A stretch of 62,174 nt of DNA, filler included, from Hausera hauseri (lineage: Eukaryota), in NCBI GenBank assembly GCA_046269625.1. It is 11 parts of 11 records of this genome, joined end to end, with 100 filler letters (N's around TTAATTAATTAA, not from the genome) between each part and the next. Parts side by side here need not be neighbours in the genome. Positions count along the whole stretch, not along the records: positions 55,615 to 62,174 come from JBJURY010087210.1; 10 more parts are not named here. The stretch is one strand, 5' to 3'. Under the pieces are notes generated by a model that worked only from the letters and a program-made list of their open reading frames with translations, had not been told where the DNA came from and searched no databases. This document shows, piece after piece, positions 3,001 to 62,174 of the stretch (the first letter of the stretch is position 1; each line of letters begins with the position of its first letter). Both the position numbers and the translations under genes were made by a program.

Positions 3001-3808
3001 GAACTCTCCAACCTTGATAAAAACCCATCAGATGAAGTTATTCGTGCGGCACAGTCCCACTTTGCAGATGTCAACTCAAACGCATTTTGCCGCTTTATAA
3101 ATAAAGACAAATCATATATTCCAGAGGACTTATACTCAGCGAAGTTTGTATGGCTGAAGGTTCTGTCACCTTCTGGTTTTCGGCCTCAGTACGTTGGCCC
3201 TTATAAACTACTCAACATTTTCTTGCACACTGATACTATTTTACGTAATGACAGACCTCAAAATGTACACATTGCTAATCTTAAGTCAGCATTCTTCGTT
3301 GACGATGACCAGGATAACAGCGCTGTTTCAAATCCTAACGCTAACCTCTCTCTACTCAAGCTATCGTCTCATTTCCTCAATGATTTTGCTTCGTCGCAGC
3401 AATCAGTCTCACGTCACAATCAGTTTTCTTCACTGCCGTCATCGTCCATTGCTCCTTCATCACTCACTTCACCTTCATCGTACGTTTTACTTCCATCTCC
3501 AGCCTCGCCTACTTCGTTTGATCCACTTCACTCTTCAGTTTCTTCGCCATTTTTACCTCTTCATGAAGCATCCTCCTAAAACACCAAAAAATCCACGGCA
3601 TCTCTCCCTTGAACAACTCCACGAGCACCAGCAACTTCTAACAAGTCACGTTATGTGACATTTAGTACTTATAGCAGGGAGAAGTTCATAGATTGAATCC
3701 AATGTCTGACACATACGCAAACTGAATAGGTACCAGCTCTTACTCTTCTTATGATACTCATGTCTACTTCCTTCCTTATAATCTTTCATTTTGCCACGAG
3801 GAAGGTGA
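1..3808 (+). mobile_element. Degenerate Ty3/Gypsy LTR retrotransposon pol (PR-RT-RH-IN), CsRN1-like
   Basis: Protease FLIDSGA at nt 6-26. RT motifs SPLYVVVKKDG, CGDYRQLN and YIDD. RNase H motifs TTDDS and YSTFDRELLA. Integrase motifs HLDLVGPLP, TDQG, YHPQANGLLERFH and GPY. Many stops and frameshifts. Confidence 0.93.
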
Positions 3809-9608: not shown

Positions 9609-10037
9609 CTACTTACTACTGATTAATTTTTTAGTAGTAAATAAAATTGAATGGAATATTTTTGCTTTTATTATGAGCATCGCAGCAACGAAAACAACTT
9701 CAATGTAAAACGTGTATGTCTGCCAAATAAGAAACCAAACGCAGCCGACAATAACGGGCAACGTCATAAAGAATGAAACTACAACATAACTGATTTGCTC
9801 TGTCAAATTTCCCTTCATTCCGCAGAGAATTCGAATATACTCCATGCCAGTTAACGACAACAGCAGCAGAACTTCTCTGCTCAGTGCAGTCGGGTCGTAA
9901 ATCATCGACTGGCCTTTGATGATCAAGATGAGTGATTCGAAAATGTAAAATAACGCCGAAAAATATTGCTGTAGATACAGGCACATTTGATAAGGCGCCA
10001 ACGATCTAGACGTGACGTAATAATTTAATTCCGACAT
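9609..10037 (-). CDS. TMEM216: TMEM216/TMEM80/TMEM17-family ciliary transition-zone membrane protein
   Basis: 142 aa with four hydrophobic segments and the family motif EYIRILCGMKGNLTE. Confidence 0.75.
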   Translation of the reverse strand: MSELNYYVTSRSLAPYQMCLYLQQYFSALFYIFESLILIIKGQSMIYDPTALSREVLLLLSLTGMEYIRILCGMKGNLTEQISYVVVSFFMTLPVIVGCVWFLIWQTYTFYIEVVFVAAMLIIKAKIFHSILFTTKKLISSK

Positions 10038-10800
10038 GTCTGGAATGAGATAATTGTCAATAGATCATTAATAATTTTCAATCATCCAGTCGAAAAAAAT
10101 TCCTCACTATGCAATTGACAAAAATGCAGAAACAGTAAAATTCACTAGATTTGAATTTACACGGTTGTTGTCAATGGATACGTTTAAACACAAATTTGGA
10201 TAATTAAAATAACTTTTAATCGGGTAAATCGGCTAATATCACATTTCTTTCGAATAATTATCATCAGCTTCAAAGTTGGAATGACATTGCAACTTCTAAG
10301 TGTCCAAATTATCAAAAATTATAAGTTATGATGTAAAATAAAAATCACTTTAAAATATATTTGCTCCAAAGTTTTGAAATATTAAAAATTAATAACAAAA
10401 ATTGCATAGTCGCAGACGACTGGTGTAGTTTTTTAATGTAATATTATTAGATTTAGGTTGATGGAAATATTTTATCTATACAATGAATAATTCGATTCGC
10501 CAAAGTCTTTCTATGAATCAAAATCTCCATACAGAATAATTGAATACTATTTACAAGAATACTATATAACAAATTTGGTGAATTATACAAATTTTGTTGC
10601 ATAATGCACAAGTACCAAAATGGTCAAAAATACAACTCTATTACAAAAAATACTACTATATTGACCCAATTATAATTCACTGCAAACTTTATGGTTATTT
10701 CAGCTAAAATTTATTTACAAAAACTTATTTTCCATTTTAAGTGTGATTTCTAAACTTTATTTATTGTACTTTCTGAGTTATAATAAGAAATTTTTTCCAG

Positions 10801-17200: not shown

Positions 17201-18040
17201 TTGAAGTGGCGAATTCAGTGATAGTACTTACTTGGGTAATTGGTTTCTTTGTTACCTCAAGTGGAATTTTCCATATCCAGGCTTTCCGATAATAGCTTTT
17301 TAGATAAACACTTGGTTTATTGGGTCGGGTTCTGTATTGTTTTCTGAATTCGTTGCCCATCGGTATTTTACAACATGGATTGGCTCTATCTCGTTCGATG
17401 TAACAATAATTCGCTGAAGGGGTTGGCTTCTTTATTGGTATGAACAGCATGGAAATTTGTCTGTCGCCGATTAATTCTGTTTTGGTTTTTGTCTGGATAC
17501 ATCTATTTTTGATGTCCTAGAAGATCCCGACTATGTTATTATCCAAGATTCGCTTTTGTAGGTCAGTACTTTGGGTAATAATAATTTCCGCTTTGCTTGT
17601 TTTGTTCTGGTATGACCGTTTTGGCTTGCGGATTTACGTTCGCTTGAATTCCATAAAAGTGGTAGTAGTGCATAAGAAATATATTTGTATGTTCGTCCGA
17701 AGTCCAATTCACAACATTTCTGCACTATTCTTTATTGGGAAATCATCGTTATGTTGTTGATTTTGTCAACAGTATTTGAAATTTTACGTGGCCTTTAACG
17801 GATTTACTTGCCCTAAACCAGGCACATGGTTTACTCCAATGCCTATCGTAGACCTTTAACGACTAAGTTTACAATATCTCCATTTTTCTGCATGTTGTTT
17901 CTCGATTAGTTCTTATCGCTTTCCGCTTTGGCGGATTCCGTAGATATCTTCTATGGAGGAATCATCCCAAATCCATTGACTTTTGGTTTTTGGAAGATAA
18001 GCGATTAGTGATAGTGCTAAAACTATCTGGACGTATGATA
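14300..18040 (-). pseudogene. Decayed pol-fused accessory ORF: signal peptide, FN3-like repeats, TM, exonuclease-like domain, conserved unknown domain, RING
   Basis: Signal IVLALSLIAYLPKTKS. CCELDFGRTYKY and QKPQSDYVIQIYEKD resemble the 980-aa ORF. TM-like segment followed by CRFKRHK. Exonuclease-like pieces RIIAINC, GIPIEVSI, ETYYGIEKEHL and GCILYGYQI. C-terminal CPVC...TCPV. Confidence 0.7.
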
Positions 18041-19990
18041 TTAGTCTGGCGATTATAAAAGATTTTGTTCTTTTATCTTGATTTTGACCCCAGTTGTAGC
18101 GTTTGTTTGATCTTATTTCCGTCTTGATAACTTTTTGAATTGATACAACTTTACCGTTCTTATTAATATAGACTGTAGTCGGCGTGGTTTTGGTAATCTC
18201 GTACAGTCCTCTTCCGGTGCGAGTCGGATTTAATGACGTGCCTTTCTTGACTGCTGGGACATAAACCCAATTTCCTTGTTTCAAATTGTGTGGCTTCTCT
18301 TTCTTATAGTACTGTTTTTTAAATTGTTCTTGATATTCACGGATTAACTCTAGCAATTTCCCAACACTTCTGTAACCATGGCTGCAACACTTCCGCGAAA
18401 TTTTGTTTCAAATCTGCAGGATTAATCGTATATGGCGTCATTCCTAAATCTCGGTAATATGGCTTCTCGTTTATATATCATAAAAATGGTGTGAATCCGG
18501 TTGCAGGATGTGGTGTCGTATTTATAGCGAATTGAGTTCCCTCTAAGATTTCATTCAAATCCTTTTGGTCTTTTACGACTATTGTTGATAGAATACGTAT
18601 AACAGTTGCGTTCATACGTTCAACCATTCCATTACATTGGGGAAGGTATGTGGTCGTAGTTAGTCGTTCGATCTCTAATTTCCTCTATCGATCAAGTTCT
18701 AATCGGGAGGTCTGTGCCTGCAGACAACCTTTCTTACTACGGCTTCAGCTAAAGTCTCTACCTTTTGGTCGACTAGTGCTATTAACTCCGCGAAATGAGT
18801 TTGTGGATCAATACAGGTCAGAATATATTTATTTCTGTGGGTTGCAGGTAGTGGTCCTACAATATCCATCGACATAACTTTCATGGGTCTATCTGGTACG
18901 TTTATCGGTTTTAATTCAGATATATAATTTTTCACCCTTTTCTGGTTGCGCATACTTCACAAGCGCTTACCCAATTTTCACATCAGTAAATGCTTGGCCA
19001 ATATTTATTCAGTATTCTTTCCAGCGTCTTCTTCCAAGATGTGCCCAGCTAAATATGAATTGTGTTTTACCACCAGGACTTCCGTTCATAATCTTTTTGG
19101 AATGACTCACTTAATTCCTTTCTTAAGCAGACGATATATCGGTGCGTTTATTTTCGTGTTATCTAGCACAGGTGGCATAGTATCCACACAAACCTAACCT
19201 GTCTTAATTCTTTCTGGATTTGAGGTTCCATACAACCTGATATTTTCAGCAATGATTTATCTGGTCTCGATCCTCCTTCTCCAACTATATGTTCAAAGTA
19301 GGATATTGCATTTTGAGCCCATTTACACGTAAGGTTTAATTTCAATCCAGCTTGCTCTAATCGCATGGGTGTATCGTTAGTATCCTTCAAGCGCTCTTCG
19401 TTCTAGATGCTACCATTACATCGTCTAAGTAGACGAACGTATGATCAACTCCCATTAACATTCTATTCATTATGTGAAAATAACCGATCCAGTTGTTATA
19501 ACGAACGGCATGACATTAAATCCGTATATGTCATCGTGCGTTTTAAACGCCGTTTTATAATGGTTTTCGTCTTCAATTTCTACTTGCCAGAATCCGGACT
19601 GTAAATCCAGAGTGATAAAGCTTCACGGACGACAATGGAAAGGAGTCTTTAATCATGACAGTATTTAATGCTGTATAATCGATGCAAAATCGATGTTTTG
19701 TAGTACCCTTCTTTTTAACCGTAAGTATTGCTGAATATCAAGATCGATAACTCGGCCTAATTATATCTGCTTTAAGCATTCATTCAACTTTTTTATTTCG
19801 GGTCTTAGTGAGTGCGGTGGAGGATACCATTTCGGCATCTTCTGACCTTCAAGTTCAATTTCCTTATTTGAACCCGGTTTTTTAAGCCGAATTGTTAATC
19901 TTAGGGCTTTAACTCTACCAATATCTTCGTCTTGGGCAAAGAGTGATTTATAGCGGCATAACAAGTCATAAAAGCGACAGTAAGATTCAG
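18040..19990 (-). mobile_element. Degenerate Ty3/Gypsy pol (RT, RNase H deleted, IN), same family as the contig-11 element
   Basis: Motifs PPPHSLRPEIKK, RFCIDY, VMPF and LKPINVPDRPMKVMSMDIVGPLP. Colinear with 55760-58350 at both DNA and protein level. Confidence 0.9.
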
Positions 19991-25696: not shown

Positions 25697-26988
25697 CAGC
25701 TATGGCCAAATGTCTGGTAACTGTCAATAAAATGCATCTAATATCAAACATGGAAATAATAGCAATAATACAAACGTCAACTCAATTTTTTTGCTGTGCG
25801 GGTGTAAAAATACTTTGTGTTCTTTATTTACCAGCCTTAACCAATCAAAATTCCGTCAATTCTGACAGAGATTTCTTACATTATGCTTGTTAGTCTGTTA
25901 ACCTGCTATGGAGCTGTCTACTAGTTTAAGAAGCCAAGTCGTTGTGTTACATCAATCTGGTATGCTGCAAGTGCGTGTGGCTTAAATGCTTGGTCTCACT
26001 AAGCTTGTGGTATCATCTACACTGAAGAGGCACCGTGAAACGTGTGATGTTGCAATGCGGCCAAGGAGTGGCCGACCACATGTTACTACACCAACGACGG
26101 ACCGCATTATTCGACGCCGAAGCATTATCAACCCAACCACACCATCAAGGAAATTTGCTGCTGAATTCCAAGTCAGTTCTTATACCATTACACGCCGTCT
26201 ACATGACGAATTTTGACTGAAAAGTTATCGACCAGCAAACAAACCGATGCTCAGCGCCAAAAATATTCGCGATCGTCTTGCATTCTGCATGCTCACAGAC
26301 ACTGGACACCACAAATGTGGGAAACTGTGTTGTTCAGTGATAAGACGCAAATGTTACAGTTTGCTAACGATGGCCGGACATGGGTTAGATGTCCCGTTAG
26401 TGAGTGCTATGATGCTAAATACGTTGTTCCCACGGTAAAGCATTCTGCCAGTGTTATTATCTGGGGTAGTATTTTTGCTTCTGGTGGAGGTAATCTTTAT
26501 TTTCTACCAAAGAACACGACCATGAAAGCCACAAACTATTTCGAAATTCTTCAGGAGTATTTGCGGCCCATGATGACTTGTCGTAATGCTATTATCTTCA
26601 TGCACGACGGAGCTACGTGTCACAAAGCCAAGATGGTGAAAAAGTGGCTTGCGGATTCTGGGGTTGAAATATTGCCTCCGTGGCCTGGAATTTTTCCGGA
26701 CCTCAACCTCATTGAGAATCTGTGGCGCATTTTGGAAGTTAAAGTTGCTGCCCATCCAAGTAGCTTACAACATCTAATCGAAGTGATAAGAAAAGTATGG
26801 TGCAAGGAAGTGTCCATGGAAGTATGCCTAAAGTTGGTGCATGGCATGCCTAACAGAATCAACGAAGTAATAAAAAGGTTCATTTGTCATTTGCATGATC
26901 ACTGTTATATTGGTATGTTTGATATTAAATGCAATTTTTCATAAAATGCCTATTTTTTCACAAGTTACAAGACTTTTGGCCATAATTG
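25697..26988 (+). mobile_element. Full-length Tc1-like transposon (DD34E) with frameshifted transposase
   Basis: TIRs CAGCTATGGCCAAATGTCTGGTAACT and AGTTACAAGACTTTTGGCCATAATTG are flanked by TA. Motifs RSGRP, VLFSD, FMHDGA and PDLNLIENLW. Confidence 0.93.
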
Positions 26989-26999
26989 TATTAACTTTC

Positions 27000-28681
27000 C
27001 AGCACATTTGGTAATTGTCTCAATAAGTCACAACCTAATACTACATCGTTGGTTAATTGTTCCATTATTGCAAATTCGTAATGGAAGGATTGTCCCATAA
27101 TGTGAACTTCTGGATTCCATTTAAACATCGGTCTTGACATTTGTCCAACGGCTCCCATACTTCCGGGATCTTTTGTTGATAGCGGGTGCAGATGTCCTCA
27201 TAACGTTTGCGGAATTGAATCATTTTTGATATACGACGTTTCAGAACCCCTGTCGATTAGGGCGTAAACTTCCCAGTCTTCAGTAGTATCTTTGACAAAG
27301 GGCCTTCTTTCTATTACTGTTCCATAACAATTCGATGCGACTTTGGGTTGCTTAATCGTCGATATTTTATGGCCGCTGCTTCTAATATCTGGGGAATTAA
27401 TTACACTTTCGGTTAGCTGTTTCAATTCTCCATTTGGGTATAGTTCGCTGTTTGCGACGTTCATATCCTCTGCTTCATGGCTACTGATTAGTGGTTGTCG
27501 ATTATTAGCATGTGATTCTAGATTTCGAAACGTTTGCATTCTTTGAGATTTCCCGAGACTGTTGATCTGGTTTCTATATTTCCAGGTACTCTTGGAGAAT
27601 ATAATATTTTGTGATCATCCACTGACTGTCGGCGACAAGGTGCAGAGTTTTCTCTATACTCGTGCATTTTCCGTAAAACTCCATATTGTTTTGTTGCTTC
27701 ATAAGGGTCTTCAAAACTATATGGTCTTGTATAGATTTCTGTTCGATAGGATCTCATCAATTGTTTGTCACAATCTTCATAGATCGGCGCTGTTGGAGGC
27801 AGCACAGGTGGTGGTGACTTTACGACAGAATACGTTTTATGCCTATTTACTTTGGAGACGGCTACTTCTCCCTTAGGCTCGTCATCATTCGAATCGTTCC
27901 GCATTTTGGGTTGAGGAATTTTCGTCCATATAAGAATGTCTTCGTCTTCGATTATGATAGCCAACATGTCGTTTTCTACCCGTTTTCCTCGTAGGCCTTC
28001 ATAAATTTGCCGAATGGCGTTATAATTGCAGTTAAAATGTTACATGAGAATCTCGTCAACGTAGATAATTTGTATCCATTGGATTAGGGCTTTGATTAAT
28101 TATACTAAGAAATAGATCGCTAAAAATCCAGATGCGGCCTGTCCAAAAATGAAAAATCTTCCACAAATTTTGTATAGTATTTCGGTGTTACTCTGATAAT
28201 GGTCTGCACCAAGTAACGATTCCCATTAGATAGCGAGTATCATCTACCACTGCAAATATGGCCCAATTTAATTCGTGTGTACGTTGGCGCGGAAAAGTGA
28301 GAAACTGTCTAAAAGCTTCAACTTTTGTCTATAAATATCCTTCGTTTAGGCGTCCCGAAATTTGTCATCTGTTATTCCTTTTACGAGATTGGTTCCTGTT
28401 AGATTGTTGGTTGCGGCAGTTATGTATTTGCTTGGTAGGCTTACCCAATATGTTTGGCTACATCTGAACATTGGTTCTCCTAAGCTCGCTTTATATTCTT
28501 CTAAAATTGTTAGCTGAGTTGAGTTAGCTAACAGAAATCTAAGAAGACATAATAATTGTAATAATCGTGGTTTATTCTGGTATAAGACGGGTTCTTGTAT
28601 ACAACGTTTTTCTTCGACATTAATTTGTACATTTTTTCTCACATTCATAGGTTAACAGAACGTCGCCTGTGACTCGGCCAA
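27000..28681 (-). mobile_element. Fragment of the env-before-pol Gypsy family: glycoprotein C-terminus, PTAP linker, protease
   Basis: GRVTGDVLL, RCIQEPVLYQN, GIYRQK and FFIFGQAASGFLAIYFL, then PPTAP, then DWEVYALIDRGSETSYI. Colinear with 58800-60420. Confidence 0.88.
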
Positions 28682-28781: not shown

Positions 28782-30121
28782 CCCAACAGTCGACTAATGA
28801 AATGGGCTATGTTGCTCCAACCGTATGACCTTAAGTTTGAATATAAAACGGGGAAAGCTAATGCAAATGCAGACTACATGTCCAGAATACCTGAAGACAT
28901 AGATCAAGAGGAAGAAATAACGGATAAACCAGGCGTTATAGCAGCCATTTGGAGTATTACAAAAGAAAAATCACTGTTACAAAAACAGCAAAATGACAAA
29001 CAGATAAAACAAATCAAAAAATTTCTACAAAAGAAAATGATATCCTGAGATACTAACCTTCATGTACATTTAGAAAAATTTGTTGAAAATTATGAAATAA
29101 AGAATAGTATTATGTACTACAACCACAAAGGAAAACTAGTTGTAGTTGTCCCACAAGACAAAGTTATTATTAATCCAGTATCACAACAGGGTGCTGGAAG
29201 GACATCAGCGATAAAGAACGTTAGGCAGATTAAAAAGAAAATCTTGGTACATGCCGAAGGATGCTCAGGAATGGTGTAAAAGCTGTCCAATCTGTACCAC
29301 AAGGAAGAATACAGTTTCAAAAATCAAAGTCCATCTCAAACCATTAGAATGGCCACCGGCTTCAATGGAATTTTCAGCAATGGACATTCTAGGACTATTA
29401 CCTATGACAGTAAATGGAAACAAATATGTTAGTGTTTGTAGACTTGTTATCCAGATGGCCAGTTGTAATTCCAATATCAGACCAGAAAGCTCAAACTATT
29501 GCTCAGGCATTTGTAGAAGAAATCATATTTAATTACGGAGCACTCTAAATTATTAACAGATCAAGCTCAAAATTTTACAGAAGTTATGGTAGAAAACTCA
29601 AAAATATTTCGGATATTACAGTTGAAAACAACTACCTATCATCCACAAACTAATGGAACAGTAGAAAGATTTAACGGAATTTTAACCAATATGTTGGATA
29701 CGATGGTTATTGAACGACAATATGATTGGGACGAATTCATAAAGCCTTGTCTATTTCAATCAGAAACACGATTCATCCTGCGACAAAAGAAACCTTATAT
29801 ACCAGTTGATTTAGGCGTCAAAAACACCGGTCTCATATTTAAATGATATGGAATACAAAAAATTGCTGGAAGAGAAACCGGGTTATGTATGGAATTTGGC
29901 AGCAAGACACATAAAGATCTGTCAAAAAGAATATAAAACTAGATATTATGAAAAACCCAAACTGCATAACTTCAAACCTGAAGACAAGATTATGTTGCAT
30001 ACGCCTCTGGGTAAGAAATGAAAACTCCAGAACTGGACAGACCAAACAAAGGTCCTTATATGATCCAAAAAGTAAATGAGATTAATATCTACTTAAATAA
30101 AAATAAAAAAATAAAATCGAC
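28782..30121 (+). mobile_element. Degenerate Ty3/Gypsy pol 3' part (end of RNase H, integrase)
   Basis: Motifs RLMKWAMLLQPYD..YKTGKANANADYMSR, WCKSCPIC, MDILGLLP, TDQ, YHPQTNGTVERFN and GPY at 30051. Several stops and frameshifts. Confidence 0.9.
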
Positions 30122-30202
30122 CCCATAAAAGTCCATGCAAATAGATGTAAGCCAGCACCAACGGATTCTAGGATCAGAAATGAAAACCTCGGTCTATTAC
30201 TA

Positions 30203-33145
30203 TTGACAACATTTGTAATATTAACTTTAGTGACCAGTATATCAGCCCAACCCTTGGATGTAAATTACAAAGCCGTACAAGTTGGAAAATACCCTTGCAT
30301 AAAAATTACGGCTAATCGAAATTTAACGACAGACGAATATATACATATATTCATATCGAAATTACCCGTAGTAGAGAAAGCAACACCAGAGAACTGTGAT
30401 TTGTATTATAATCATTCAATACACGTTTGTTGTGGACTCTCATTCGGAGAAACTTATAGGATCCAATACGCAATTGGAAAAAGTGATCACAGCTACAGAA
30501 CATATTTTTCATTTCCTGGCACTACCCATTATTTCCATCGACCTTATTTTCTTATTTCATTTTACACTAAGGTCATGAAAAATGGACCTTGTGTAACAGC
30601 GGAGCCCGATGTTTCAAACACGAGGTATGTTACATTTAAATACATAATATTTGATGGTATAAATAGCATTCACTGTAAACCAACTTATCAAAACCCGTAT
30701 ATATGTTGCCCTATTGTTTTCGATAAAGAGTATACAATATATTATTGGACAACGTATAATGTTTATACATGGTCAAAAACTTCGGATGGTCCAGAGATAA
30801 TAATACGACCTCCAGCCAAGAAAATTACAACTTCAACAAAGAAAACAACTACTTTGATAATACCATCCAGTATAGTAGCTAGTCTAATAATGGAACTCAA
30901 GAAAGTTGTTAAGGAATTAGATACAATTATCCAACCAACAACTCACTCATTAATTATTACAGTAACAGACTTAAAAACTACGAACGTAAAATTCGAATGT
31001 TATTTTAATCATAAAGTAGTCAGCGAAAGAGTGTTAACTCCGGATGAACCAACATCAGCCTGTGCGTCCTTAGAGGCCGATACTAATTATCAGATTATTA
31101 TAACAGAGCTAGACAAAGACGGACAAGTCCTACAAGTTTTCAAAAAGAAAGAGAAAACGTTGAAATTACCTATGATCGTTACAGAAAGAGTTACAAAAAT
31201 AACTACTATACAAATTCAAGAAGAAACTCCTAATAAATACCTTTGGATAATTAGTATATTATGTACTCTTCTAATATTACTAGTCATACTGTTACCCCTA
31301 ACGATATACTGTTTAAAAGTGAGACAGCGAAGACGTAAAATAAGAAAAATAATAAATCAGTTAAAACTTTTAAGAGAAGATTCTCAAAATATGTTAACAG
31401 GGAAAATAAGTGCACCCAAAGATGAAACTCCACGTACTCCCGAACGGCTAATTTGTCCGTCAATCCAAAAGCCATCGGTTAAAAAGCCGACTAATCCAAA
31501 ATGGCAAGATTGCCCATTAAGTCTCCCTAATGAAAACAATCAAACAAGTAAACGACAAGTTTGTCGATCAATAGACACGACCGTGTGTTACTGTACAAAG
31601 ATACAGAATGAAGTTACTAAATTTTTTGCGATCTACAAAAGCTATAAATTAAAAAAGAATACCTTTATTTCCATCTCTAAATCGTCTTGGTTAATATTTG
31701 TTTATTTCCTTTTAGTTCAAGAAGGATCCGAACTTGTGGACAGAACCAAATCTTTTTATTATAATATCATCAGCAATTTGAATGAAACTGACAACAAAGA
31801 TTATGTCTATTATGGTAAGGCAAACCTAATACCCAACAACTTAAAAGGCCATCTTCTCCATCAAAGATCCGGATTGATAATGAAATTGCCTAATACTTCT
31901 ACAAAACTTTCGGATTTAATTGACATTTCCAGCCAAACCACATCAGTCTTTGTGTCTACAGCAAAAGGCCATCTTCAGATAAAGAGTCGAGCACACCTGA
32001 ATGATTTTACTGACACTTTAGATGTCACGGCCTACACCACGATTCGTTTAGATAAGAAGTTTTATCGAAATGTGACCATCATCTTACGGACGTATGGAGG
32101 CCCATCCCCGATAATATACATCGAAGTTACACGAAGAGAGGTCCTCCCTCAGATCGAATATGAAAAACCGATATACCCTTCCAATCTACCTAATCGTGAC
32201 CAGCTCACAACTGGAATATCCTTTTCCAGATTACCGCTGAAATCAAAGGATCAGATAGTAATATTAGCGACAAATTTCGCTTTCCTCCTAACCCCTTTAC
32301 GTAATAAAGAAACAACTCTCGTGGAACTAACCATTATGGATATTGAAGGGGATATCATTTTGGACGAACTCGTTACTCCGCGAGACCGGATAGATAACTA
32401 CAACAGTCTGATTACTGGATTAAAAGAAGTGAATTTAATCGGACAGATAGATGCCTATCAAGTTAGATCATTCATTAGAAAAGAACTCAATGGAAAGATG
32501 ATAATTGGAATCGATATTTACAACACCAACTTACATCTCGATCTTTTTGATACTAACGCAATATTAGGAATTAGGGATCTTTTATATCATCCGGAAATAA
32601 ATCCCGATAAAGCATTGACCCATAAGCAAGTTTTAATGAAATTTAATAACATCGTATATCCTCAACGTACCAAGGAGAAGGCTGCAACAATATTAAAAAT
32701 ATACAATTCTATCGAAGAATATAAAATTGAGGAAGGAAATTTCCAGAAATTACCCATTCAATTTCAATCAAATCAATCAGAATCATCCGTAAATGAAATC
32801 TTATTAGATAATAAACAATTTATGACTCTGGCTTTGACAGATGATTCTAAACCTGAATTGATGGATATTAGTGACACTTTTGAAACATCTACCCTTAACC
32901 AACTAACTACTAACCAATCGCTCTCAACCACTACTTCTAACGAATCCATTACAATCGATCTGACCCAATCACAAAAAAAGAAGAGAACTACCCGTGAAAC
33001 AGTTACTCTTAAGAAAAAGATCCGGAAAGGAAATCAATGGCTGCGGATAGACTCCGACAATTACAGATATACCAATGGCACTCTTGTAACCTATCCGTTG
33101 AAGCTGGGGACAGCTTCGTCTAAGGAGGGAGAAGATGTTCAATAA
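30203..33145 (+). CDS. Intact 980-aa type I membrane protein in the env position: signal peptide, three FN3-like repeats, TM, cytoplasmic REX4/ISG20-like pseudo-exonuclease
   Basis: Hydrophobic N-terminus. FN3-like motifs GLSFGETYRIQY, IVFDKEYTIYY and LEADTNYQIIIT, with a Thr-rich linker. TM at about 31238-31316 followed by RQRRRK. DEDDh-like pattern at about 32250-32715 lacking the ExoI D/E. The frame is open upstream to the integrase motif VHANRCKP. The ORF ends over the PPT/LTR junction. Confidence 0.8.
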   Translation: MTTFVILTLVTSISAQPLDVNYKAVQVGKYPCIKITANRNLTTDEYIHIFISKLPVVEKATPENCDLYYNHSIHVCCGLSFGETYRIQYAIGKSDHSYRTYFSFPGTTHYFHRPYFLISFYTKVMKNGPCVTAEPDVSNTRYVTFKYIIFDGINSIHCKPTYQNPYICCPIVFDKEYTIYYWTTYNVYTWSKTSDGPEIIIRPPAKKITTSTKKTTTLIIPSSIVASLIMELKKVVKELDTIIQPTTHSLIITVTDLKTTNVKFECYFNHKVVSERVLTPDEPTSACASLEADTNYQIIITELDKDGQVLQVFKKKEKTLKLPMIVTERVTKITTIQIQEETPNKYLWIISILCTLLILLVILLPLTIYCLKVRQRRRKIRKIINQLKLLREDSQNMLTGKISAPKDETPRTPERLICPSIQKPSVKKPTNPKWQDCPLSLPNENNQTSKRQVCRSIDTTVCYCTKIQNEVTKFFAIYKSYKLKKNTFISISKSSWLIFVYFLLVQEGSELVDRTKSFYYNIISNLNETDNKDYVYYGKANLIPNNLKGHLLHQRSGLIMKLPNTSTKLSDLIDISSQTTSVFVSTAKGHLQIKSRAHLNDFTDTLDVTAYTTIRLDKKFYRNVTIILRTYGGPSPIIYIEVTRREVLPQIEYEKPIYPSNLPNRDQLTTGISFSRLPLKSKDQIVILATNFAFLLTPLRNKETTLVELTIMDIEGDIILDELVTPRDRIDNYNSLITGLKEVNLIGQIDAYQVRSFIRKELNGKMIIGIDIYNTNLHLDLFDTNAILGIRDLLYHPEINPDKALTHKQVLMKFNNIVYPQRTKEKAATILKIYNSIEEYKIEEGNFQKLPIQFQSNQSESSVNEILLDNKQFMTLALTDDSKPELMDISDTFETSTLNQLTTNQSLSTTTSNESITIDLTQSQKKKRTTRETVTLKKKIRKGNQWLRIDSDNYRYTNGTLVTYPLKLGTASSKEGEDVQ

Positions 33146-44309: not shown

Positions 44310-46176
44310 ACAATGATTTCAACCAACTATTTCAGAACATTTAAAGGAAACGTAAACAAAGCATGCTATTACAAATATCAAACATGGACATGCACAGTAA
44401 TAACATTAAATGAATTTGCAACCGCTGTAGAAACAATATTAGTTTGCCTCTTTCATTATCTTTCTCCCTTTTTTTTTTCTTTTTTTTTTTTTATGCTAAG
44501 ACAACCTGAACTGATGAGTCTTAATTCACTGCACGACTGCACTGTTCCAAATTGATGCCTTTTTCACCCGAAATGTACCACTGCAGTTCGGATGTCCTAC
44601 TGTTGTGAAAACAAGTAAGGCGCGAAACCTTACGGGCTCCCGTCGTCGAAGCATGGCGTGCAGGGCTCCCACAGCTCGGTTGCTAACAGGCGACGTTTTC
44701 ACTATAACTGCTCCCAAGGGTGTTTCGTCTGGTGCAGAATAAAGCCACGCTCCAACTGATGTTTTACCAGCCTTTAATCTTCTTTTTTGGCCGCAAACAA
44801 CGTGAAAACTAACAAATACAGATTAAATACATGTTAGCAGATTAACATTCACAACCACATTAACGCTTACAAAAAAAATAAATAAAATAAATGTATAACA
44901 TACCGTGTGCGCCTTCTGACCAAACGTTTAGGAGATGTTATTGTCCATATCTTCCGTCTTAAGTAAACTCCGACGTAACTTATTGTCTGAGCGTCTTTAG
45001 CATCTTCTAGAAGCTTAGGTCTGCTATCGGTCACGTGATCAGAGCTTAACCATGTATTGGTGCAATACACTTTTTCACCAACAGGTGTCAGTAATACAAC
45101 ATATTAAATTAAATTCTCGTATTTACAAAGGAAATTAAACCACAAATAAACAAACAAACACCTTTTCTTTCTGCGACAGCTACACTGCCACCAAAATTAC
45201 AAAAGATTTGTATTCACCATATCAAACAAAATACAATCTTGTAATTGTCCATAAATTAACAATCAACCATCAAATTAAGTTACAAATAAAATTATTGAAT
45301 TACAGTCTTAAGGATCACATATTTGTGTTTTGAGTTATCATTTGTACTCTTTTACAATAGTTTAGGAGTCATTTTCAACCAATACCACTATTTTCTGAAC
45401 TGGTCTCTCAAGAAAAGATAGTTTTTTCAAACGTTCACCGTTCCTTCCCAAATCTGTTTGTCCGACTTGGATCTTAACCTTTCGCACCAAACCATCATCG
45501 TCTTTACTTGTTTCAACTACCTTTGCCAATTTCCATTCATTTCTAGGAATATTGTCCTCCTTTACAATGACTATATCCCCCACCTGTACATTTCTTTTAG
45601 GTGTATGCCACTGTTGTCTTAAGCTGATGTTGGTTAAGTATTCTTTGCGCCATCTGCTCCAAAACTGCTCCGTCAAATATTGCACTTTCCGCCACCTCTT
45701 CCTGGTGTACAAATCCTCTCTGATGAATCTACCAGGAGGCGGGAGTGCCACTGACTCCTTCATAGTGAGCAAATGATTAGGCGTTAAAGGTTCAACACTT
45801 TTTGGATCAATGATTGTATCTGTAGTGAGTGGACGATGGTTCACAATGGACATGGCCTCATAAAAGAAAGTTCTCAATGAGTTGTCATCCAATCTTCCTG
45901 TGGCTTGTGCCAAGACTGAACTCATGACATTCCTAACTGTCCGGATTTGACGTTCCCAAACACCTCCCCGGTGACTAGCTTCAGGAATGTTCATTTGGAA
46001 GTCGCATTGATTTTTAGCCAGATAGGTAGAGATTCTGTCTTTATCCAACTCCTGTAAACTCCTTTCAAACTCGTTCTTAGCTCCAACAAAGTTTGTGCCT
46101 TGGTCAGAACGAATCTGTCTCACTGCACCTCTGATTGCAATGAAACATCTCAACGCATTTATAAATGCATCAGTGG
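44310..46176 (-). mobile_element. BEL/Pao LTR retrotransposon 3' fragment: integrase ORF 45362-46153, PPT, 3' LTR from 45184 downward
   Basis: Motifs IRSDQGTNFVGA, ASHRGGVWERQIR, PLTPNHLL, FWSRWRKEYL and ERPVQKIVVL. On the - strand TTTTGGTGGCAG is followed by TGTA at 45184. Confidence 0.93.
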
Positions 46177-46208
46177 TTTAAATATTTGTCATTTTCTCTG
46201 CACTCAGG

Positions 46209-53640: not shown

Positions 53641-53773
53641 CTGTTTTTTTTTTTTTTGGCGTTTAAGCTGAGTCAGTTCTCTCCACTTTCAGTTATTACT
53701 GTGCAGTGTAGTTAAAAAACAAAAGTGCGGAAAATAGACATCATCATTCTTTGAATAAATGTGTGTATTTCAG

Positions 53774-54040
53774 TCCCAGACTACTCCTTACTATGTGCAT
53801 CGTACAGATGGGCAGATGGCATACACCCTAATCCACACGACTGCTCCAATTATGTCAGCTGCACTTCCAGCCTGACAACCATAGTGAACTGCGCATTGGG
53901 CGAGTCTTATGACCCGGTGACTCGGAAATGTACAGACAAGGCTTCTGCTCACCCATGTAATGACCAGAATTACTTTGGACCAACGCTGCCACCAGTAAAC
54001 TTTGTGACAGCAGCAACCACTAGAGGCCCAGTACAAGTTG
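53774..54040 (+). CDS. Chitin-binding type-2 (peritrophin-A) domain exon
   Basis: C..WADGIHPNPHDCSNYVSC......NCALGESYDPVTRKC.......C, with acceptor TTTCAG and donor GTATGT. Confidence 0.85.
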
Positions 54041-55759
54041 GTATGTTCATAAGCTAACTTTATCATATATTTCCATGAATAAATGTCATTTCAGGAACTG
54101 AAAGATTTGTTTTGGAGTTTGGAAGGAAACAGTCACGCCTTAGTAAAGTGATTATTTTTACAAATTCATTTCTGGGAACATTTGCTACGAGTGAGCACTT
54201 TTCCGGGGACATTTCCAGGGACAACATTCAGAAGTAAAATTGTACATATGTACGCACTCATGCACACATATTTAACTATGTACTTAACATTTTGTTGTTG
54301 CAAGATCTGAATTAAGCTACAGGGAAAATTAATGTATTTAGTGATGACAATAAAACTTGATGCATGAAAGCTGGCATAAAAAAATGTTGTATCCTTGTCT
54401 GGCCTAACGCATAACTAACAGATCTAATAAAGTAAATTTAAGGACAGTTTTCAGTGGTTCCAAACAAAAATAGATGGTCCTACTCCCAAGTTTAGATGTA
54501 GTAGTCAAAGAACTTCTGTGTTTCTTTATCTCAGTGTGTTATTTTGAAAGCATTTTTGCAATTAAACACTGCACAAGACAAACTTTTCATTTCTCAATAA
54601 TTAAATAACAAACACGGCTTATCAAATCATATAACTTGCGCTACAACAGAATAAATGAAAGCAACTGAACACAAAGCTGACAGCGATGCAAAGAATGTCT
54701 ATTTTCCGCACTTCTGTTTTTCAACTACACTTTTAACTAATGGCATCTATTGGCCACTTTTCCCCAGGACTGCAGAGTCGGACCAAAAATCTCAGACTCG
54801 GATTCCAACACCTTTATATCTGGTGCCTCCAGCACAGATGCCTTTTGTATATATCGATATAACTGAAAATAAATTATAAATGTACTTATTATATTTTTCT
54901 TATGTCAATTGGACACACGTAGTGTGTAAGATAAGGACATTAACAATGGACTCAGAGGGCAAATTTTCAAAAATAAAAAAACTGTAAAATGCATGTTAAA
55001 AAAATAGGGCATCCCATGATCAAAATATCAGATGTTTGTACAATCTACAATGGCACAAATTTAGAAAAAAACCGATGTAAAATATTAAACCATTTTTCCC
55101 ATGCTGTCTTCATGTAACTTTTTAATCTGCTTCATGACCTATTGTTTTTTTTTCTCATGCTTACATTTGTGCAACAAGTACTAAATTAAAATGAATGATG
55201 TGGAGATTCACCAGCAGTGAAAAAGGAAGAACTTGCATTTCATCAACTTGTGACCATTTTGAAAGCATTGCCTCCATTTTATCAAGAAAAGAAACAAATA
55301 AGGCTGTTGCTGCCAAAGCAGCTCTGCAGATGTGAAAACGTTCATTTCTACAGAGAGAAGAGTTGGAATTCATTGTGATCTTGGTTTGGTCTAGTAGTAA
55401 GCAGTTAGCTTAAGGTAGAAATGACAATACATACAATGCAGATGAATTAAATCACTGCATTCCTGCAAATCTAGACATTACTGGAAGCTACAAAAAATGA
55501 TTTTACCAAAGAATNNNNNNNNNNNNNNNNNNNNNNNNNNNNNNNNNNNNNNNNNNNNTTAATTAATTAANNNNNNNNNNNNNNNNNNNNNNNNNNNNNN
55601 NNNNNNNNNNNNNNCAGCAGACATACCAGAGGGCGGGTATTTTAAAACCCTACCCCGGCTGGGCGGTGATGTGGACGGTGTGGATGCGCACTCAGCCAAC
55701 ACGGTCGTCTGCCTGTATGGGTCAATTTTAATGATGTGTATTTAATGGCTACTGGATAG

Positions 55760-58700
55760 TGTACATAAACCCAATTTCATGGTTCCAAATTATGTGGTTT
55801 CGCTTTCCTATCATATAGCTTTTTAAACTGCTCTTGATCTTCTTGAGATAACGCTTTAGCGATTTCCCAACACTTTTGCAATCGCATCTGTAATACTTCC
55901 GCAAAATTTTGTCCTAAATCTTCGGGATTGACCGTGTATAGCGTCATTCCTAAATCCGTGGGTAACACGGCTTCACGTCCATACATTGCGAAAAACGCCG
56001 TAAACACTGTTGCTGGGTGTTGAGTAGTATTAATAGCGAACTGAGTTCCTTCTAAAAATTCGTCCCAAGCTTTTTGGTCCTTTGCTACTACGGTTGATAG
56101 TATGCGTTTGACGATAGCATTCATCCGTTCGACCATTCCATTACACTGAGGGTGATATGTGGTAATTGTTAATCGTTCGATTCGAATATCTTGGTGATCT
56201 TCTCGAATAGTTCACTTGTGACATTTCTTCCTCGATATGTGAGTATCTGATCTGGGGGCTCGTATCGGCAAATAATTCTTCTTACTATGGCTTCTGCCAA
56301 GGTCTCTGCCTTTTGATCAATTAATGCTACCAACTCGACAAAGTGAGTTAATCAATCAATACAAGTTAAGATATACTTATTGTTTTTGTGGGTCGTAGAA
56401 AGAGGTCCTACGATATCCATAGACATGACTTACATAGGTCTATCGGGTACATTAATTGGTTTTAATTGGGCCATGTAGTTTTTCGTCTTCTTTTGTTTAG
56501 TTGCACATACTTCGCAGGCATTTACCCAATTCTTCACATCAATATAGATACTGGGCCAAATGTATTTATTCACTATTCTTTGTAATGTTTTCTTCCAACA
56601 CATGTGTCCGGCTAAATATGAATTCTGTTCCGACGTTAGCGCTTCAGTTCGTAAACTTTTCGAAATAACTATCAATTTCCTTGCTTTCCGTTCGTAATAT
56701 AAAATATCCTCATTGCTCTTGTCATTTAAGACGTAGTATTTATGTCCATGTCTGTGTAAATGTTTCTTTAACTGTTGTCCCTTCGGCATGATATCTTTCT
56801 TAGCAAATTCTATAATCTGTTGAATAACTTTATCCCTTCTTTGCTGTGAGGACATTTTAATTGCTTTATCCAGCGCTAAGGCACGTTGGCGATCTACTAT
56901 TGCTTCGAGTTGGCATTTCTTCATTACCGTGATTGCGCTTGTTGTAGTCTTTAATCTCGATAGTGCATCTGCATCTATATGTTTATTTCCTGGCTTATAC
57001 TGGAATTCGATATTGTATCTCGATATTTTTTCGATCCATCTGTTAAGTCTGCATGTCGGGTTATTTGCTCGGACTTTTAATGTCGTAACTGCCTTGTGAT
57101 CAGTGACAATTATAATTTTCTGCCCGTATACGTAAACGTTGAAGTGTCGAAGTGCTTCTTTTACAGCTAGAGTCTCTAGTTCGGTAACAGAATAGTTTTT
57201 CTCAGCTTTTTTCAAGGAACGTCCTCCATGAGCAATCGGGTGTTCTAATTCTTTATCTTCTCTTTTCTGCGCTAATTCATATCCAATGCCTTCTTTACTG
57301 GCGTCTGTCTTGATTATGAAGGGTAAGTTAAAATCTGGATATCGTAAAACAGGCTCACTTGTTAATATCTTCATCTCGTCGAAGGCTTTCTGTTTGACGT
57401 CTGTCCATTTCCATTTAATTCCTTTTTTGAGCACGCGGTATAGGGGTGCATTAATTTTTGAATTATCTAGTACATAGGTTGCGTAGTATCCACAGAGTCC
57501 TAACCAGTGTCTTAATTACTTCTGATTTTGTGGTTCCATGCAATCTGATATTTTGTTTAATAACGATTTATCTGGTTTCGATCCTCCTTCTCCAACTATA
57601 TGGCCCATGTAATATACTGCGTTTTGAGCCCATTTGAATTTCTTCGGATTCAACTTTAATCCGGCTTGTTCCAATCTCATCAGTGTGTGTTCAATAACCC
57701 TTTAAGTATTCCTCTTTTGTCCTCGATGCTATCATTACATCGTCTAAGTACGCAAAAGCATGATCCAATCCCATTAGCATTTTACTCATCATTCTCGTAA
57801 ATATGGCTGGTCCAGTAGTAATACCGAACGGCATGACATTAAATTCATAAACGCCATCATGTGTTTTAAATGCCGTTTTAGCGGTTTTCGTCCTCAATAT
57901 CTACTTGCCAATATTCGGATTGTAAGTCCAGAGTGGTGAATTATTTCGCTTTTGAGAGTCGGTCTAAAGCCTCTTTCACTGACGGTAGTGGAAAGGAATC
58001 TTCCATCGTAAGATTATTCAATGCCCTGTAGTCAATACAAAATCGAGGCTTCGTTGTACCTTTCTTTTTAACCATAAGGATAGGTAAGTACCAGGATCTG
58101 TAATTGGGCTTAATTATATCGGCCTTAAGCATTTGTTTAACTTTTTTCGTTATCTCGGGCCTTGACGAATGTGGTGGAGGATATCATTTTGGCATCTTCT
58201 GATCCTCCAAATCTATTTCTTCGTTTGAACTGGGCTTTTTCTTGAGCGGAATAGTCATCTTTAGCGCTTTTGCTCTACCGATATCTTCTTCGTCTTTAGC
58301 AGGAATCGATTTATATCGGCATAATAATTCATACAATCGACAGTAAGATTCAGCAGAGAATTTAGTTTCGACATGAGGTGGAAATTCAGCATTTTTATAA
58401 GGCTTCTCTTCAATAGTTATCGACGATACTCTACGTATCTCCTAAAGTAGTGTAAGCATGAAGCTTGACGGGGGTCTGTGCATTATTAGTTATCCTGATC
58501 GGCACTCGACCGGAATGCACCTTTGTTAGTATGTTACTAAGTGTTATATTCGGATCTAACGTATCTTTTGGTTCAAAATACACCGGCTGATCGTCATCTT
58601 GTTGTATTGGCATAAATTATCACTTCTGTTCTTGGCGGGATTTTCTCGTCTACGGGTATCCAGACCTCTCCAAATTTTCTATCCTTAGAGTTTTTCACGC

Positions 58701-59680
58701 CTTTATTTGGTCTAATTTCTATTAACTTCCCTGTTTGCAAGTCAATCGCTATGTTGGGCAATCTTTTTAGCAGGTCACATCCTAGTACTACGTCATCAGT
58801 AAATTGCTCCATAACTGCAAATTTGTGATGGAAAAACTGTCCAACTATTTGAACTTCTGGGTTTCATTTAAACATTGGTTTTGACATTTGATCAAAAGCT
58901 CCTGTACTTTCTGGATCCTTCGTAGACGGTGGGTATAACTGTCCTCTCAGTGTTTGAGGTATTGAATCATTTTTGATATATGACATCTCCGAACCTGTGT
59001 CAATTAAGGCGTAAACTTCCCAATCCTTAATAATGATTTTGGCGAAGGGTCTTCCTTCTATTACCGTTTCGAAACAATTTGATATATTCTTTGAACGTTT
59101 TACCGCCAATATTTTGTGCCCATTGATTCGGATTTCGGGGGAGGATACAACTGTCTTAATTCTTCGTTCGGATATAACCCGTTGTTTTCTATGTTCAATT
59201 CTTCCGCTTCATGCGTACTAATTAATGATTCTCGATTGTTACTGTGTAATTCAGTATTCTGGAAGGTTTTTAGCCTTGAATTATCCCAAACCGTCGATCT
59301 AGTTTCTATATTCTTAGGTTCTCTTCGCGAGTACAACATCCTGGGATCCTCTGTGGATTGTCGGTAGCACATTTTCCGTAGAATTCCGTAGCGTTTTGTT
59401 CTCTCATAAGTATCCTCTACATTAAATGTTCTCTTATAGATTTCCGTCTGATATGAACTCATGGTTCGTTTATCACAGTCTTCATAAAAGGAGCGGTAGG
59501 AAGTAACATGGGTAATGGCGTTTTAACGACAGAGTACATCTTATGTCTATTTATTCCTGAAAGTACTTCTCCTCCCTTAGGTTCGTCATCATCTAAATTA
59601 TTTCTTCGTATAATAGGTTTTGTAAATTTTCTCTTCCGTAGGAATATGGTTTCCTTTCCGTTTACGATTATAGCCGACAT
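55760..59680 (-). mobile_element. Degenerate Ty3/Gypsy pol: PTAP linker, protease, RT, RNase H, integrase
   Basis: Motifs ALIDTGS, RFCIDYRALN, VMPFG, YLDD, KTDAS, YSVTELETLA, DALSR, the HHCC region, MDIVGPL and YHPQCNGMVER. Confidence 0.95.
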
Positions 59681-59699
59681 GGCGTTCTACGTCCGATTT

Positions 59700-61583
59700 T
59701 CATCTATTTTCTTCGTACGCTTTTAAGAATTTCCCAAAAAGCGTTATGATTGCAGTCAGTATTTTTGAAGAAAATCCATTTAATGTAAATATTTCATACC
59801 TATTTATTACGGCTTGGATAACTGCCTTGATCATTTGTATCAGAAAATATATCGCTAAGAATCCATATGCAGCTTGTCCGAATATCAGAAATCTTTCCCA
59901 CATTTTGTAAAGTATTTCGGTTGTTATTTGCTCATAATGGTTTACGCCAAGTAATGATTTCCATTTAGCCTGATATCGTATATCATCTACTACAGAAGCC
60001 ATAGCTCGATTTAACTCATGTGTTCGTTGTCATGGAAAGGCAAGGAATTATCTAAAAGCCTCAATTTCTTTTGTCCGGTATATACCTTTCGATGAGATGT
60101 CTTGAAATTTATTGTCCGTGATTCCTTTCGCAAGATTTGTTCCGGTTAATTTATTTGGATCAACAATAATACCTCCATTTGGCAAGCTGACCCAGTCTGT
60201 TCCACCACGTTTAAACATAGGTTCTCCTAAGCTTGCCTTACAATTGTTAAGGATGGTTGGTTGGGTGGCGTTATTTAATAACACTCTCGTTAATGGTGTA
60301 GCTAATCTCGGAATATTTTGGTAAATAACAGGAAGTTCTTGAATGCAACGTTTTTTTTCAACGTTGATGGGTACATCTCTCTTTTCACATTCGTAGGTTA
60401 GTAGTACTTCGCCTGTTACCCGACCGAAAATTCCGTCTCATAGGAATTATTGGAGAGGCCAATTCCGGATTTGCATATATAAGAGCCATTTTAGTTCTCA
60501 TAATTTCGGTATCCAATTTGTAATCATTATCATTTTATGATATAATTCCGTTATTCCGACTTGTCCTTTATAGTAAAAGTAATCGTCTTTATTCTTCAGG
60601 TAATCTTCGATGCGGACATCCTGCGTTTCTAGCTTATAAGTTTTTGCGCTTATTTCTCTTTCTGAAGTGAAAAACGCCTCGTAGTTCGTAGCAAACATCA
60701 CTACATCACACCGAGAAATAATCTCTTTTTTAATAAATTTCAATCCATGTTGATCCGAAATTAATATAGTAGGTGTAGAGTGTTCTGATACATCCTCACG
60801 TGTCCTCGAGTTGGTTTTTGATTTGTCCACATTTTTTTCCTGTAGTCTCATTGAACTTTAGTTCTTTAATCTTAATAAAATTACAATTTCTCCCAGGAGG
60901 TTTCCATATTATAACCGAGCTTTTAAAAACGCAGGTTCCGTCTTGTAAATGGCAATTTTGATTCTCAGTATATAACTTAGTGACACTGGAACATTACCTT
61001 CTGTGATCGCATTTTTGATTCGTAGAAATCCACAACCACCACGTTTGATTCTAATCCTTTTCCGGTGTCGCATTCGGCTCCATTACAATATCCACTATGC
61101 GTATCTAATCTTTTGGCCACTACTTTGTATGCCCTGATTATTTTTTGTGGCTGCATCTCCAATTGCATACTATTCCATTGTATTCTCCCAGTTTCCTTGG
61201 CTTGCTTGCAGTGTTGACGTTCTAAGTTCATTGGAATTAATGCGGTTGTTGGTTTGATTATAGATGAGTGTCCATGAACCAACCCACAGTGAAAAATGCT
61301 ACGTGATCGTCTGAACATGCATTCTATTCCATCTAGCGATATCAATTCTTGCTGCTGATACAGGAAATAATTTTTCTCGTTTGTCTCCAACTTGTGTGGT
61401 CTAGCATCTTCGCATACTTCCAGATCCATTAGGGAATATCTCTCCTAGCTTAAACTTATCGCAGTCGTAGACAGTTACAGCGCCTATATTCTTTATTAGC
61501 ATCATCAAGGTGAGTAGGCTAATTAGCCAATTCGATTCATTCTTCCGGCATCCAACGTTCGCCGTTGTCAAATTACGTAGCAT
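59700..61583 (-). pseudogene. Chuvirus-G/herpes-gB-like (class III) envelope glycoprotein, frameshifted, upstream of pol
   Basis: Signal WLISLLTLMMLIKNIGA followed by YDC. Motifs C...RSIFHCG..H.S, C....TG, FGRVTGEVLLTYEC, RCIQELPV and GIY..EIEAFR. C-terminal hydrophobic segment FLIFGQAAYGFLAIYFLIQM. Confidence 0.82.
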
Positions 61584-62174
61584 ATCGTCTCGTTTATTAC
61601 TATTTCGTTTGTCTTCTTCCTTGTCAAATAGTCTTGACTAATTTACTTCGCAGAGCAATCTTCTTTTTGCCTTTCGTGCCAAGCCTACAGCTCTATTGAT
61701 TTTATTAACTCGATTAGGATTTATTTTGATAGCTAAGTATAGTAATACTTTTCTCAGTTCTTTATTGGTGTTTTCTACCATGATTTTATCAATTACTGTT
61801 TCATCAGTTAAGCTACTTTTTTATGGTTTAAAACGTGAACTTCTCATCATTTTGGCTGCCTCGAAAATTACTTTTTCTTTATCATTTAATATATTACCTC
61901 GAAGGCTTGAATAATTTACAATTCGTATCAGATTCTTCATTAGCTCGTTTAATTCTTTATTATCTCTGCTAAAAGTCGGAATCGACATTTATCTTAATTC
62001 TCTAATCAATTCTCCGTTGTAGTCTACTTCTTCTCGCGTTTTCTTGGGCCTACCTACTGGACGTTTCGGCTTTTGGCCTTTAGTGGTTATTTCACTCAGT
62101 GGTACTAAATTTATATCATATTGTTCCTTATCTTCATCTGTTTGTAAATACTCGAAATACATTGCAGCATCTCG
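61584..62174 (-). pseudogene. Gag-like region with AT-hook, in frame with the glycoprotein signal peptide
   Basis: One frame from 62174 to 61583 with three isolated stops. Contains KRPVGRPKK. DETVIDKIMVENTNKELRKVLL...RAVGLAR resembles a Gypsy capsid C-terminus. Confidence 0.5.

Follow-up and report, generated by a model that had tools for sequence, protein, structure and literature searches.

A decayed Ty3/gypsy element of Hausera hauseri with a predicted gB/chuvirus-type glycoprotein encoded between a long spacer and the protease

The sequence examined is a 62174 nt window of the Hausera hauseri genome (GenBank assembly GCA_046269625.1) consisting of 11 contigs joined by identical blocks of Ns, and the last contig (window positions 55615–62174) carries ~6.5 kb of a Ty3/gypsy element in which the envelope glycoprotein gene (env) lies upstream of the protease. 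This env-before-pol order is real at this locus and is an already known architecture. The preliminary description of this DNA had presented the order as new, on the premise that env normally lies downstream of pol; published elements with this order, which that description had itself named as removing the novelty, are described by Arkhipova and Yushenova 2019 (PMC6431247) and by Chary and Hayashi 2026 (PMC13524379). The novelty is thus not supported, and the premise is out of date. As the order has been published, the locus mainly adds a divergent lineage, with 32–38% identity to the nearest relatives retrieved in the RNase H (RH) and integrase (IN) region. The reading preferred here, given a probability of about 0.5, is that of a decayed many-copy Ty3/gypsy element, with env between a long spacer and the protease, that is likely related to the planarian Burro elements. 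Its ancestor would have made a Gag-spacer-Env polyprotein, with the env frame ended after the transmembrane segment and Pol produced from a second frame.

The minus strand of the focal contig was found to encode a spacer, a signal-peptide-like stretch, a Monjiviricetes/chuvirus-type glycoprotein with a transmembrane segment followed by a stop, a linker, and then protease (PR), reverse transcriptase (RT), RH and IN, all on one contig that ends at the window end on the upstream side and at 55615 on the integrase side. The features are as follows.

61584–62174, minus strand: pre-env spacer, truncated at the window end, with a GRP basic motif at 62066–62040; not capsid or nucleocapsid
61434–61583, minus strand: predicted signal peptide, then the beginning of the mature glycoprotein with its YDC motif, from alignment to relatives, with an ATG at 61583
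59700–61538, minus strand: envelope glycoprotein of Monjiviricetes/chuvirus-G type, predicted class III (gB-like), in five frame pieces, with a transmembrane segment and a stop at 59702–59700
59200–59680, minus strand: linker before the protease, beginning at ATG 59680, likely coding, no long terminal repeat (LTR) found
58606–59199, minus strand: aspartic protease with a DTG near 59000 (Pfam RVP at E 8e-4, slightly short of the cut-off; tblastn to P0007, P0024 and P0026)
58425–58613, minus strand: PR-RT spacer common to relatives (profile from 8 relatives, E 3e-5), in the slot called dUTPase-like in Burro
57516–58339, minus strand: reverse transcriptase, YLDD near 57750, broken (RVT_1, E 4e-12)
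57015–57407, minus strand: RNase H (RT_RNaseH, E 2e-31)
55702–56663, minus strand: integrase (zinc-binding, core and C-terminal part), broken (Integrase_H2C2, E 8e-14; tblastn)

In a Pfam scan of 28 pieces, three minus-strand pieces of the focal contig matched Monjiviricetes_fusion (PF24664) in profile order (60980–61444, 60051–60437 and 59703–60029; E values 3e-12, 1e-10 and 4e-14). A profile of env from 13 relatives was covered from position 5 to 636 (of 645) by five successive pieces between 61538 and 59697 (E 2e-85 and 1e-28 for the best two), thus the entire glycoprotein is present. The transmembrane segment begins at 59873 by hydropathy, and the glycoprotein with its membrane anchor is located upstream of the protease, as originally proposed. 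The signal peptide is predicted from alignment only, as the stretch aligns to the hydrophobic stretch and YDC motif of relatives (best E 2e-6) and falls below the threshold in a 15-residue hydropathy test. An AlphaFold model was made for the env of relative P0003, not for the broken env of the window (28 sequences, pLDDT 73, pTM 0.48). In Foldseek searches this model matched herpesvirus gB in all PDB matches listed (best E 2e-13) and chuvirus-type and other negative-strand virus glycoproteins in BFVD (best E 4e-39), at sequence identities of 10–22%. With PF24664 on the window itself, these matches agree with the earlier assignment, and env is predicted to be a class III (gB-like) fusogen.

The PR-RT-RH-IN order is that of Ty3/gypsy elements (Metaviridae). 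The best PDB match of the RH-IN region was Ty3 Gag-Pol (E 4e-30), with a retroviral RT at E 1e-6, and among the seven PDB matches pol was closest to Ty3/gypsy rather than to BEL, copia or retroviruses. A BEL/Pao-type pol was not found in the element, the RH-IN region being Ty3-like with an Integrase_H2C2 match; the rve match was below its cut-off. The core piece of RT shared 47–54% identity with nine relatives, and phmmer found no dUTPase likeness in the PR-RT spacer. Pfam, the Ty3 match, the P0003 fold and a second copy in the window thus uphold the description of a Ty3/gypsy element in which a gB/chuvirus-type fusogen precedes the protease.

Two further copies are present on other contigs of the window.

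27027–28681, minus strand: copy 2, comprising the C-terminal half of env, transmembrane segment, stop, linker and PR (blastn, 67.6%; env profile)
17913–19990, minus strand: copy 3, comprising RT-RH-IN and a hydrophobic stretch after IN (blastn, 70–73% over 18203–19990)

Copy 2 shares 67.6% identity with the focal copy over 1706 columns (blastn, E 5e-163, 27027–28679) and matches the env profile at E 1e-19, confirming that the glycoprotein-linker-protease order recurs in a diverged copy. As its contig ends inside env, it is silent on Gag. Copy 3 (RT-RH-IN, 18203–19990) was not listed previously. The focal copy is dead, with 12 stops inside segments aligned to P0026 and at least 10 frame changes. 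A single sequencing run, X1, which may be the source of the window sequence, yielded 25,827 contigs that mapped onto the element and covered 30 of 30 bins, most of them less than 95% alike, indicating a large, diverged many-copy family. X1 contigs vary in length at several of the frame-change sites of the focal copy. No RNA record was listed as carrying the element, a result that does not bear on its expression.

Relatives were collected using phmmer with one env piece, which retrieved 23 proteins, and a cluster look-up with two alignment searches brought the number to 32. A metagenome scan added loci L002 and L003, the latter a single frame of 2693 aa. The 33 proteins examined (the 32 and the L003 frame) are biased towards long ones by the way of searching, and some are near-duplicates. 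In eleven of the 33, one chain contains env and, upstream of it, a CCHC knuckle, and six (L003, P0012, P0021, P0026, P0029 and P0030) encode CCHC, env, PR, RT, RH and IN in a single frame. The relatives also carry ubiquitin-like, Bcl-2-fold and ankyrin modules. One member of the env family, P0016, is the glycoprotein of a true RNA virus (Wenzhou crab virus 2). A homologue search with a single fragment found nothing among 34 candidates, viral contigs contained nothing related to pol and a single weak match to env, 20 residues long (L001), GTDB contigs contained no relative, and none of 10 open reading frames of the window was present as such in the protein collection.

The Bcl-2-fold domain is located just before the env signal peptide in P0001, P0003, P0013, P0026, P0028, P0030, P0032 and L002 (2569–3030). 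The best of five models (pLDDT 82) gave a VIA Z of 14.1 (rmsd 3.2, 137 aligned), and the top 37 VIA rows were by title Bcl-2-family or poxviral Bcl-2-like proteins, with unrelated rows beginning at Z 4.9. A profile of this helical domain matched Bcl-xL at E 7e-4, and Foldseek gave no match under E 0.001.

Three observations on the relatives stand apart from the question of gene order. P0012, a full env-pro-pol element, appears as a hypothetical protein in the annotation of a Flavobacteriaceae metagenome-assembled genome, and is likely animal DNA binned with a bacterium. Tandem aspartic-protease-like domains occur in P0004, P0013, P0024, P0027 and P0029, with up to 7 in P0024, some of them after the integrase. 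In L002, a single stop (3058–3060), which may reflect decay or be read through, separates the Gag-spacer frame from the env signal peptide in a frame that is otherwise open.

At the junction of env and protease, the frame of each copy ends at the same codon, after KAYEEN[R/G]; an ATG lies 19 nt downstream in the focal copy and 8 nt downstream in copy 2, as had been noted before. Env and linker are thus out of frame in both copies. The linker is likely coding, as differences between the copies favour third positions (26 versus 18 and 15; 36 versus 17 and 21) and the first three indels in it each measure 3 nt. In the env tail, third positions account for 44 of 92 differences (versus 20 and 9), and with differences mostly at third positions it is likely that the two copies diverged while active. 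A genuine frame break between env and Pol in this lineage is consequently plausible, though both copies are heavily decayed. Alternatively, the family may be the same but the ancestor may have had a continuous gag-env-pro-pol frame like Burro, both stops after the transmembrane segment being products of decay. The single frame of L003 and that of Burro (PMC6431247) fit this account, as does the continuation into PR of 15 of the 18 proteins that reach the transmembrane segment; both window copies are also full of breaks, and their stops do not line up in the best local alignment. However, a continuous ancestral frame would have had to be shifted independently in each copy over a short distance, where one aligner places just one frameshifting indel between the two, and the stops share a codon number, with the ATG conserved. 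Decay of a continuous frame is thus regarded as possible rather than probable. An initial reading of the stops as non-homologous, and hence as decay, was dropped as too strong because the alignment is ambiguous. Among 40 of the 1664 X1 substitution rows, none falls at the env stop. The earlier proposal that Pol is expressed separately is somewhat favoured for this lineage, but is not a rule of the family given the 15 proteins that run on into the protease.

The stretch upstream of env had been described as a Gag-like region in frame with the signal peptide and as part of a Gag-Env polyprotein. Neither Pfam nor a Gag profile from 8 relatives found a capsid in 61584–62174, which also has no CCHC motif, and the Gag-like label was dropped, leaving the GRP motif, which is presumably AT-hook-like. 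Profile searches for Gag, CCHC and Bcl-2 upstream of env found nothing firm; against the Bcl-2-fold profile of the relatives the match was weak, with 14 and 30 of 1000 shuffles scoring equally high, and the GGW motif of that domain is not in the window stretch before env. As no capsid or zinc knuckle is present, the case for a Gag fusion in the focal element comes from relatives only. A shared frame with the signal peptide does hold, but it is interrupted by three stops (61991, 61823 and 61640), and ATG 61583 could start env alone. Hence env might be a stand-alone frame unfused to Gag, with a separate gag frame upstream, an arrangement consistent with those stops, with the position of the ATG before the hydrophobic stretch and with the one stop just before the env signal peptide in L002. 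This is considered distinctly unlikely. Stops are common throughout the focal copy, the GRP motif lies in the signal-peptide frame and resembles the pre-env spacers of several relatives, CCHC and env share one chain in 11 of 33 proteins, and P0013, which has a pre-env region similar to that of L002, is open across the point of the L002 stop. A Gag-Env polyprotein thus fits the relatives but is not seen in the window, and by comparison with them Gag and Env were quite probably fused in the active ancestor. A chance chimera, in which an endogenous chuvirus glycoprotein or other env came to lie beside an ordinary gypsy pol by nested insertion or misassembly, could draw on the presence of P0016 in the env family and on endogenous chuvirus-type glycoproteins known to occur beside LTR fragments (PMC10084718). 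It is, however, very improbable, and is largely refuted by the recurrence of the junction in a 68%-identical copy and by the long relatives that match env and pol in the same order, which also support the earlier exclusion of a one-off nested insertion. The linker divergence is of coding type, and no direct repeat of ≥20 nt was found within the focal contig in a search for LTR-like repeats.

Several points weigh against a Burro-like element with a Gag-Env polyprotein and a separate Pol. Of the 33 proteins, 18 extend as far as the env transmembrane segment, and 15 of the 18 remain in frame up to a protease motif, the three without continuation being P0003, P0023 and the RNA-virus glycoprotein P0016. 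Between the focal copy and copy 2, 10 of 18 indels over ~1.65 kb are frameshifting, including another of 11 nt inside env, and the junction alignment is ambiguous, with the two stop codons unpaired in the best local alignment. The 590 nt of 61584–62174 lack a recognisable Gag. Identity to the nearest relatives is low (~30% in env, 32–38% in RH-IN), and an RH-IN tree of 12 rows, which was not used, placed the element on a long unsupported branch. Foldseek TM-scores of the P0003 model are low (~0.2 for PDB and at most 0.33 for BFVD), thus the fold match supports the class and not the conformation. The likeness to Burro and the errantiviruses was judged from descriptions and from motifs compared by eye.

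By the general principles of membrane insertion, a signal peptide inside such a polyprotein would open translocation, signal peptidase would cleave, and the transmembrane segment would return the chain to the cytosol. In the preferred reading of a Gag-spacer-Env polyprotein with separate Pol, Gag and spacer would be made in the cytosol, the gB-like ectodomain would enter the endoplasmic reticulum by means of the internal signal peptide, and signal peptidase would free it from the Gag-spacer part while the transmembrane segment anchors it. In most relatives the chain would re-enter the cytosol and continue into PR-RT-RH-IN, whereas in this lineage the env frame would end after the transmembrane segment and Pol would come from a second frame via re-initiation at the conserved ATG, frameshifting or splicing. 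If Pol is truly split off, the lineage illustrates a way for an endogenous retrovirus built on one polyprotein to reduce its ratio of enzyme to structural protein. Env may serve entry into neighbouring or germline cells, by analogy with Drosophila errantiviruses (PMC13524379).

All eight relatives that extend past the integrase (P0007, P0012, P0024, P0026, P0027, P0029, P0030 and L003) carry a C-terminal tail containing two hydrophobic segments. These tails are only weakly alike; P0021 ends inside IN, a single, weaker hydrophobic stretch follows IN in copy 3, and the focal contig stops short of this region. From its sequence, the tail of the relatives reads as a second membrane protein, an ectodomain flanked by two hydrophobic segments. 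The literature passages searched did not mention a protein of this sort after the integrase, and supplements or further papers could cover it. The protein would matter if it were a receptor-binding partner of the fusogen, and it is doubtful that the element represents a distinct gag-env-pol lineage with Pol split from a Gag-Env polyprotein and a terminal second membrane protein as a possible attachment partner of a gB-type fusogen, which, if true, would amount to a two-part entry machine in a retrotransposon.

Another gypsy-like element in the window (28785–33145, plus strand) has a broken RH-IN followed by a 1012-aa open frame with three hydrophobic segments and a Thr-rich stretch, the start of which overlaps the IN C-terminus of relatives. 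This element thus also has a hydrophobic tail like that of the relatives, and after it residues 732–833 of the frame matched ISG20L2/ISG20-like exonucleases (E 1e-4); the frame had no Pfam match, and 30107–33142 had no Atlas match.

Elsewhere in the window, host genes encode a Transmemb_17 membrane protein (9609–10064, minus strand) and a chitin-binding peritrophin-A (CBM_14) domain (53755–54057, plus strand). Mobile elements include an ordinary gypsy pol fragment (1–3579), a Tc1/mariner-type DDE_3 transposase (26207–26944) adjoining the end of copy 2 and a BEL/Pao integrase with a DUF5641 match (45362–46177). Two near-identical double-RING frames lie on one contig (40196–40648 and 43671–44132, plus strand). 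An Endonuclease VII match (4458–5792, plus strand) lies beside another frame, which by eye we take to be like a protein-primed DNA polymerase B and possibly Polinton-like.

The closest known systems include elements in which env precedes pol. The giant gypsy-like Burro/GYPSM1 elements of planarians (~25–30 kb) have env in frame between gag and pol, and encode in one frame Gag with CCHC, ubiquitin/SUMO-like and BCL2 domains, env, PR, a dUTPase-like domain, RT, RH, IN and ankyrin repeats; their env matches mononegavirus fusion glycoproteins, and thousands of copies are present, with decaying ones known (PMC6431247). The window element resembles them in env before PR, in PR-RT-RH-IN, in many copies and in decay, and the relatives share the ubiquitin-like, Bcl-2 and ankyrin modules. 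The window copy differs in that env is followed by a stop and a broken frame, that the linker is short and without an ankyrin match, and that there is at most a faint Bcl-2 trace. A single gag-env-pol frame, as in Burro, was found in six relatives, whereas both decayed window copies break after env.

The GAG-ENV-POL Ty3/gypsy errantiviruses with an HSV/gB-type ENV (HSV, herpes simplex virus) occur in Nematoda, Bryozoa and Platyhelminthes, with 10 bryozoan and 9 flatworm elements listed and the nematode ones included via Sacco et al. 2022, whose non-canonical endogenous retroviruses have ENV and POL flipped (as cited in PMC13524379). They share with the window element a Ty3/gypsy pol and a gB-type env upstream of pol. 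The nematode elements of that 2022 study reportedly have one continuous gag-env-pro-pol frame. As in the errantiviruses, the window encodes a gB-type ectodomain between signal peptide and transmembrane segment, the signal peptide being assigned by alignment and the fold via P0003, and six Schmidtea C1a env sequences have motifs and cysteine spacing like those of the relatives and the window, compared by eye only (PMC13524379). Those elements are intact, unlike the window copy, and gaps of up to 2000 nt were allowed in that study. The available Troyka (PMC12440569) and Atlas virus literature had no bearing on env order. Anakin (PMC7642597) likewise has a chuvirus-type glycoprotein in an LTR retrotransposon, but with a BEL/Pao pol where the window element has a Ty3-like one. 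The G proteins of Chuviridae/Jingchuvirales and herpesvirus gB resemble the window env by PF24664 and P0003 by fold, at 10–22% identity. Taken with the Burro and errantivirus comparisons, the element very probably belongs to the Burro-like GAG-ENV-POL family.

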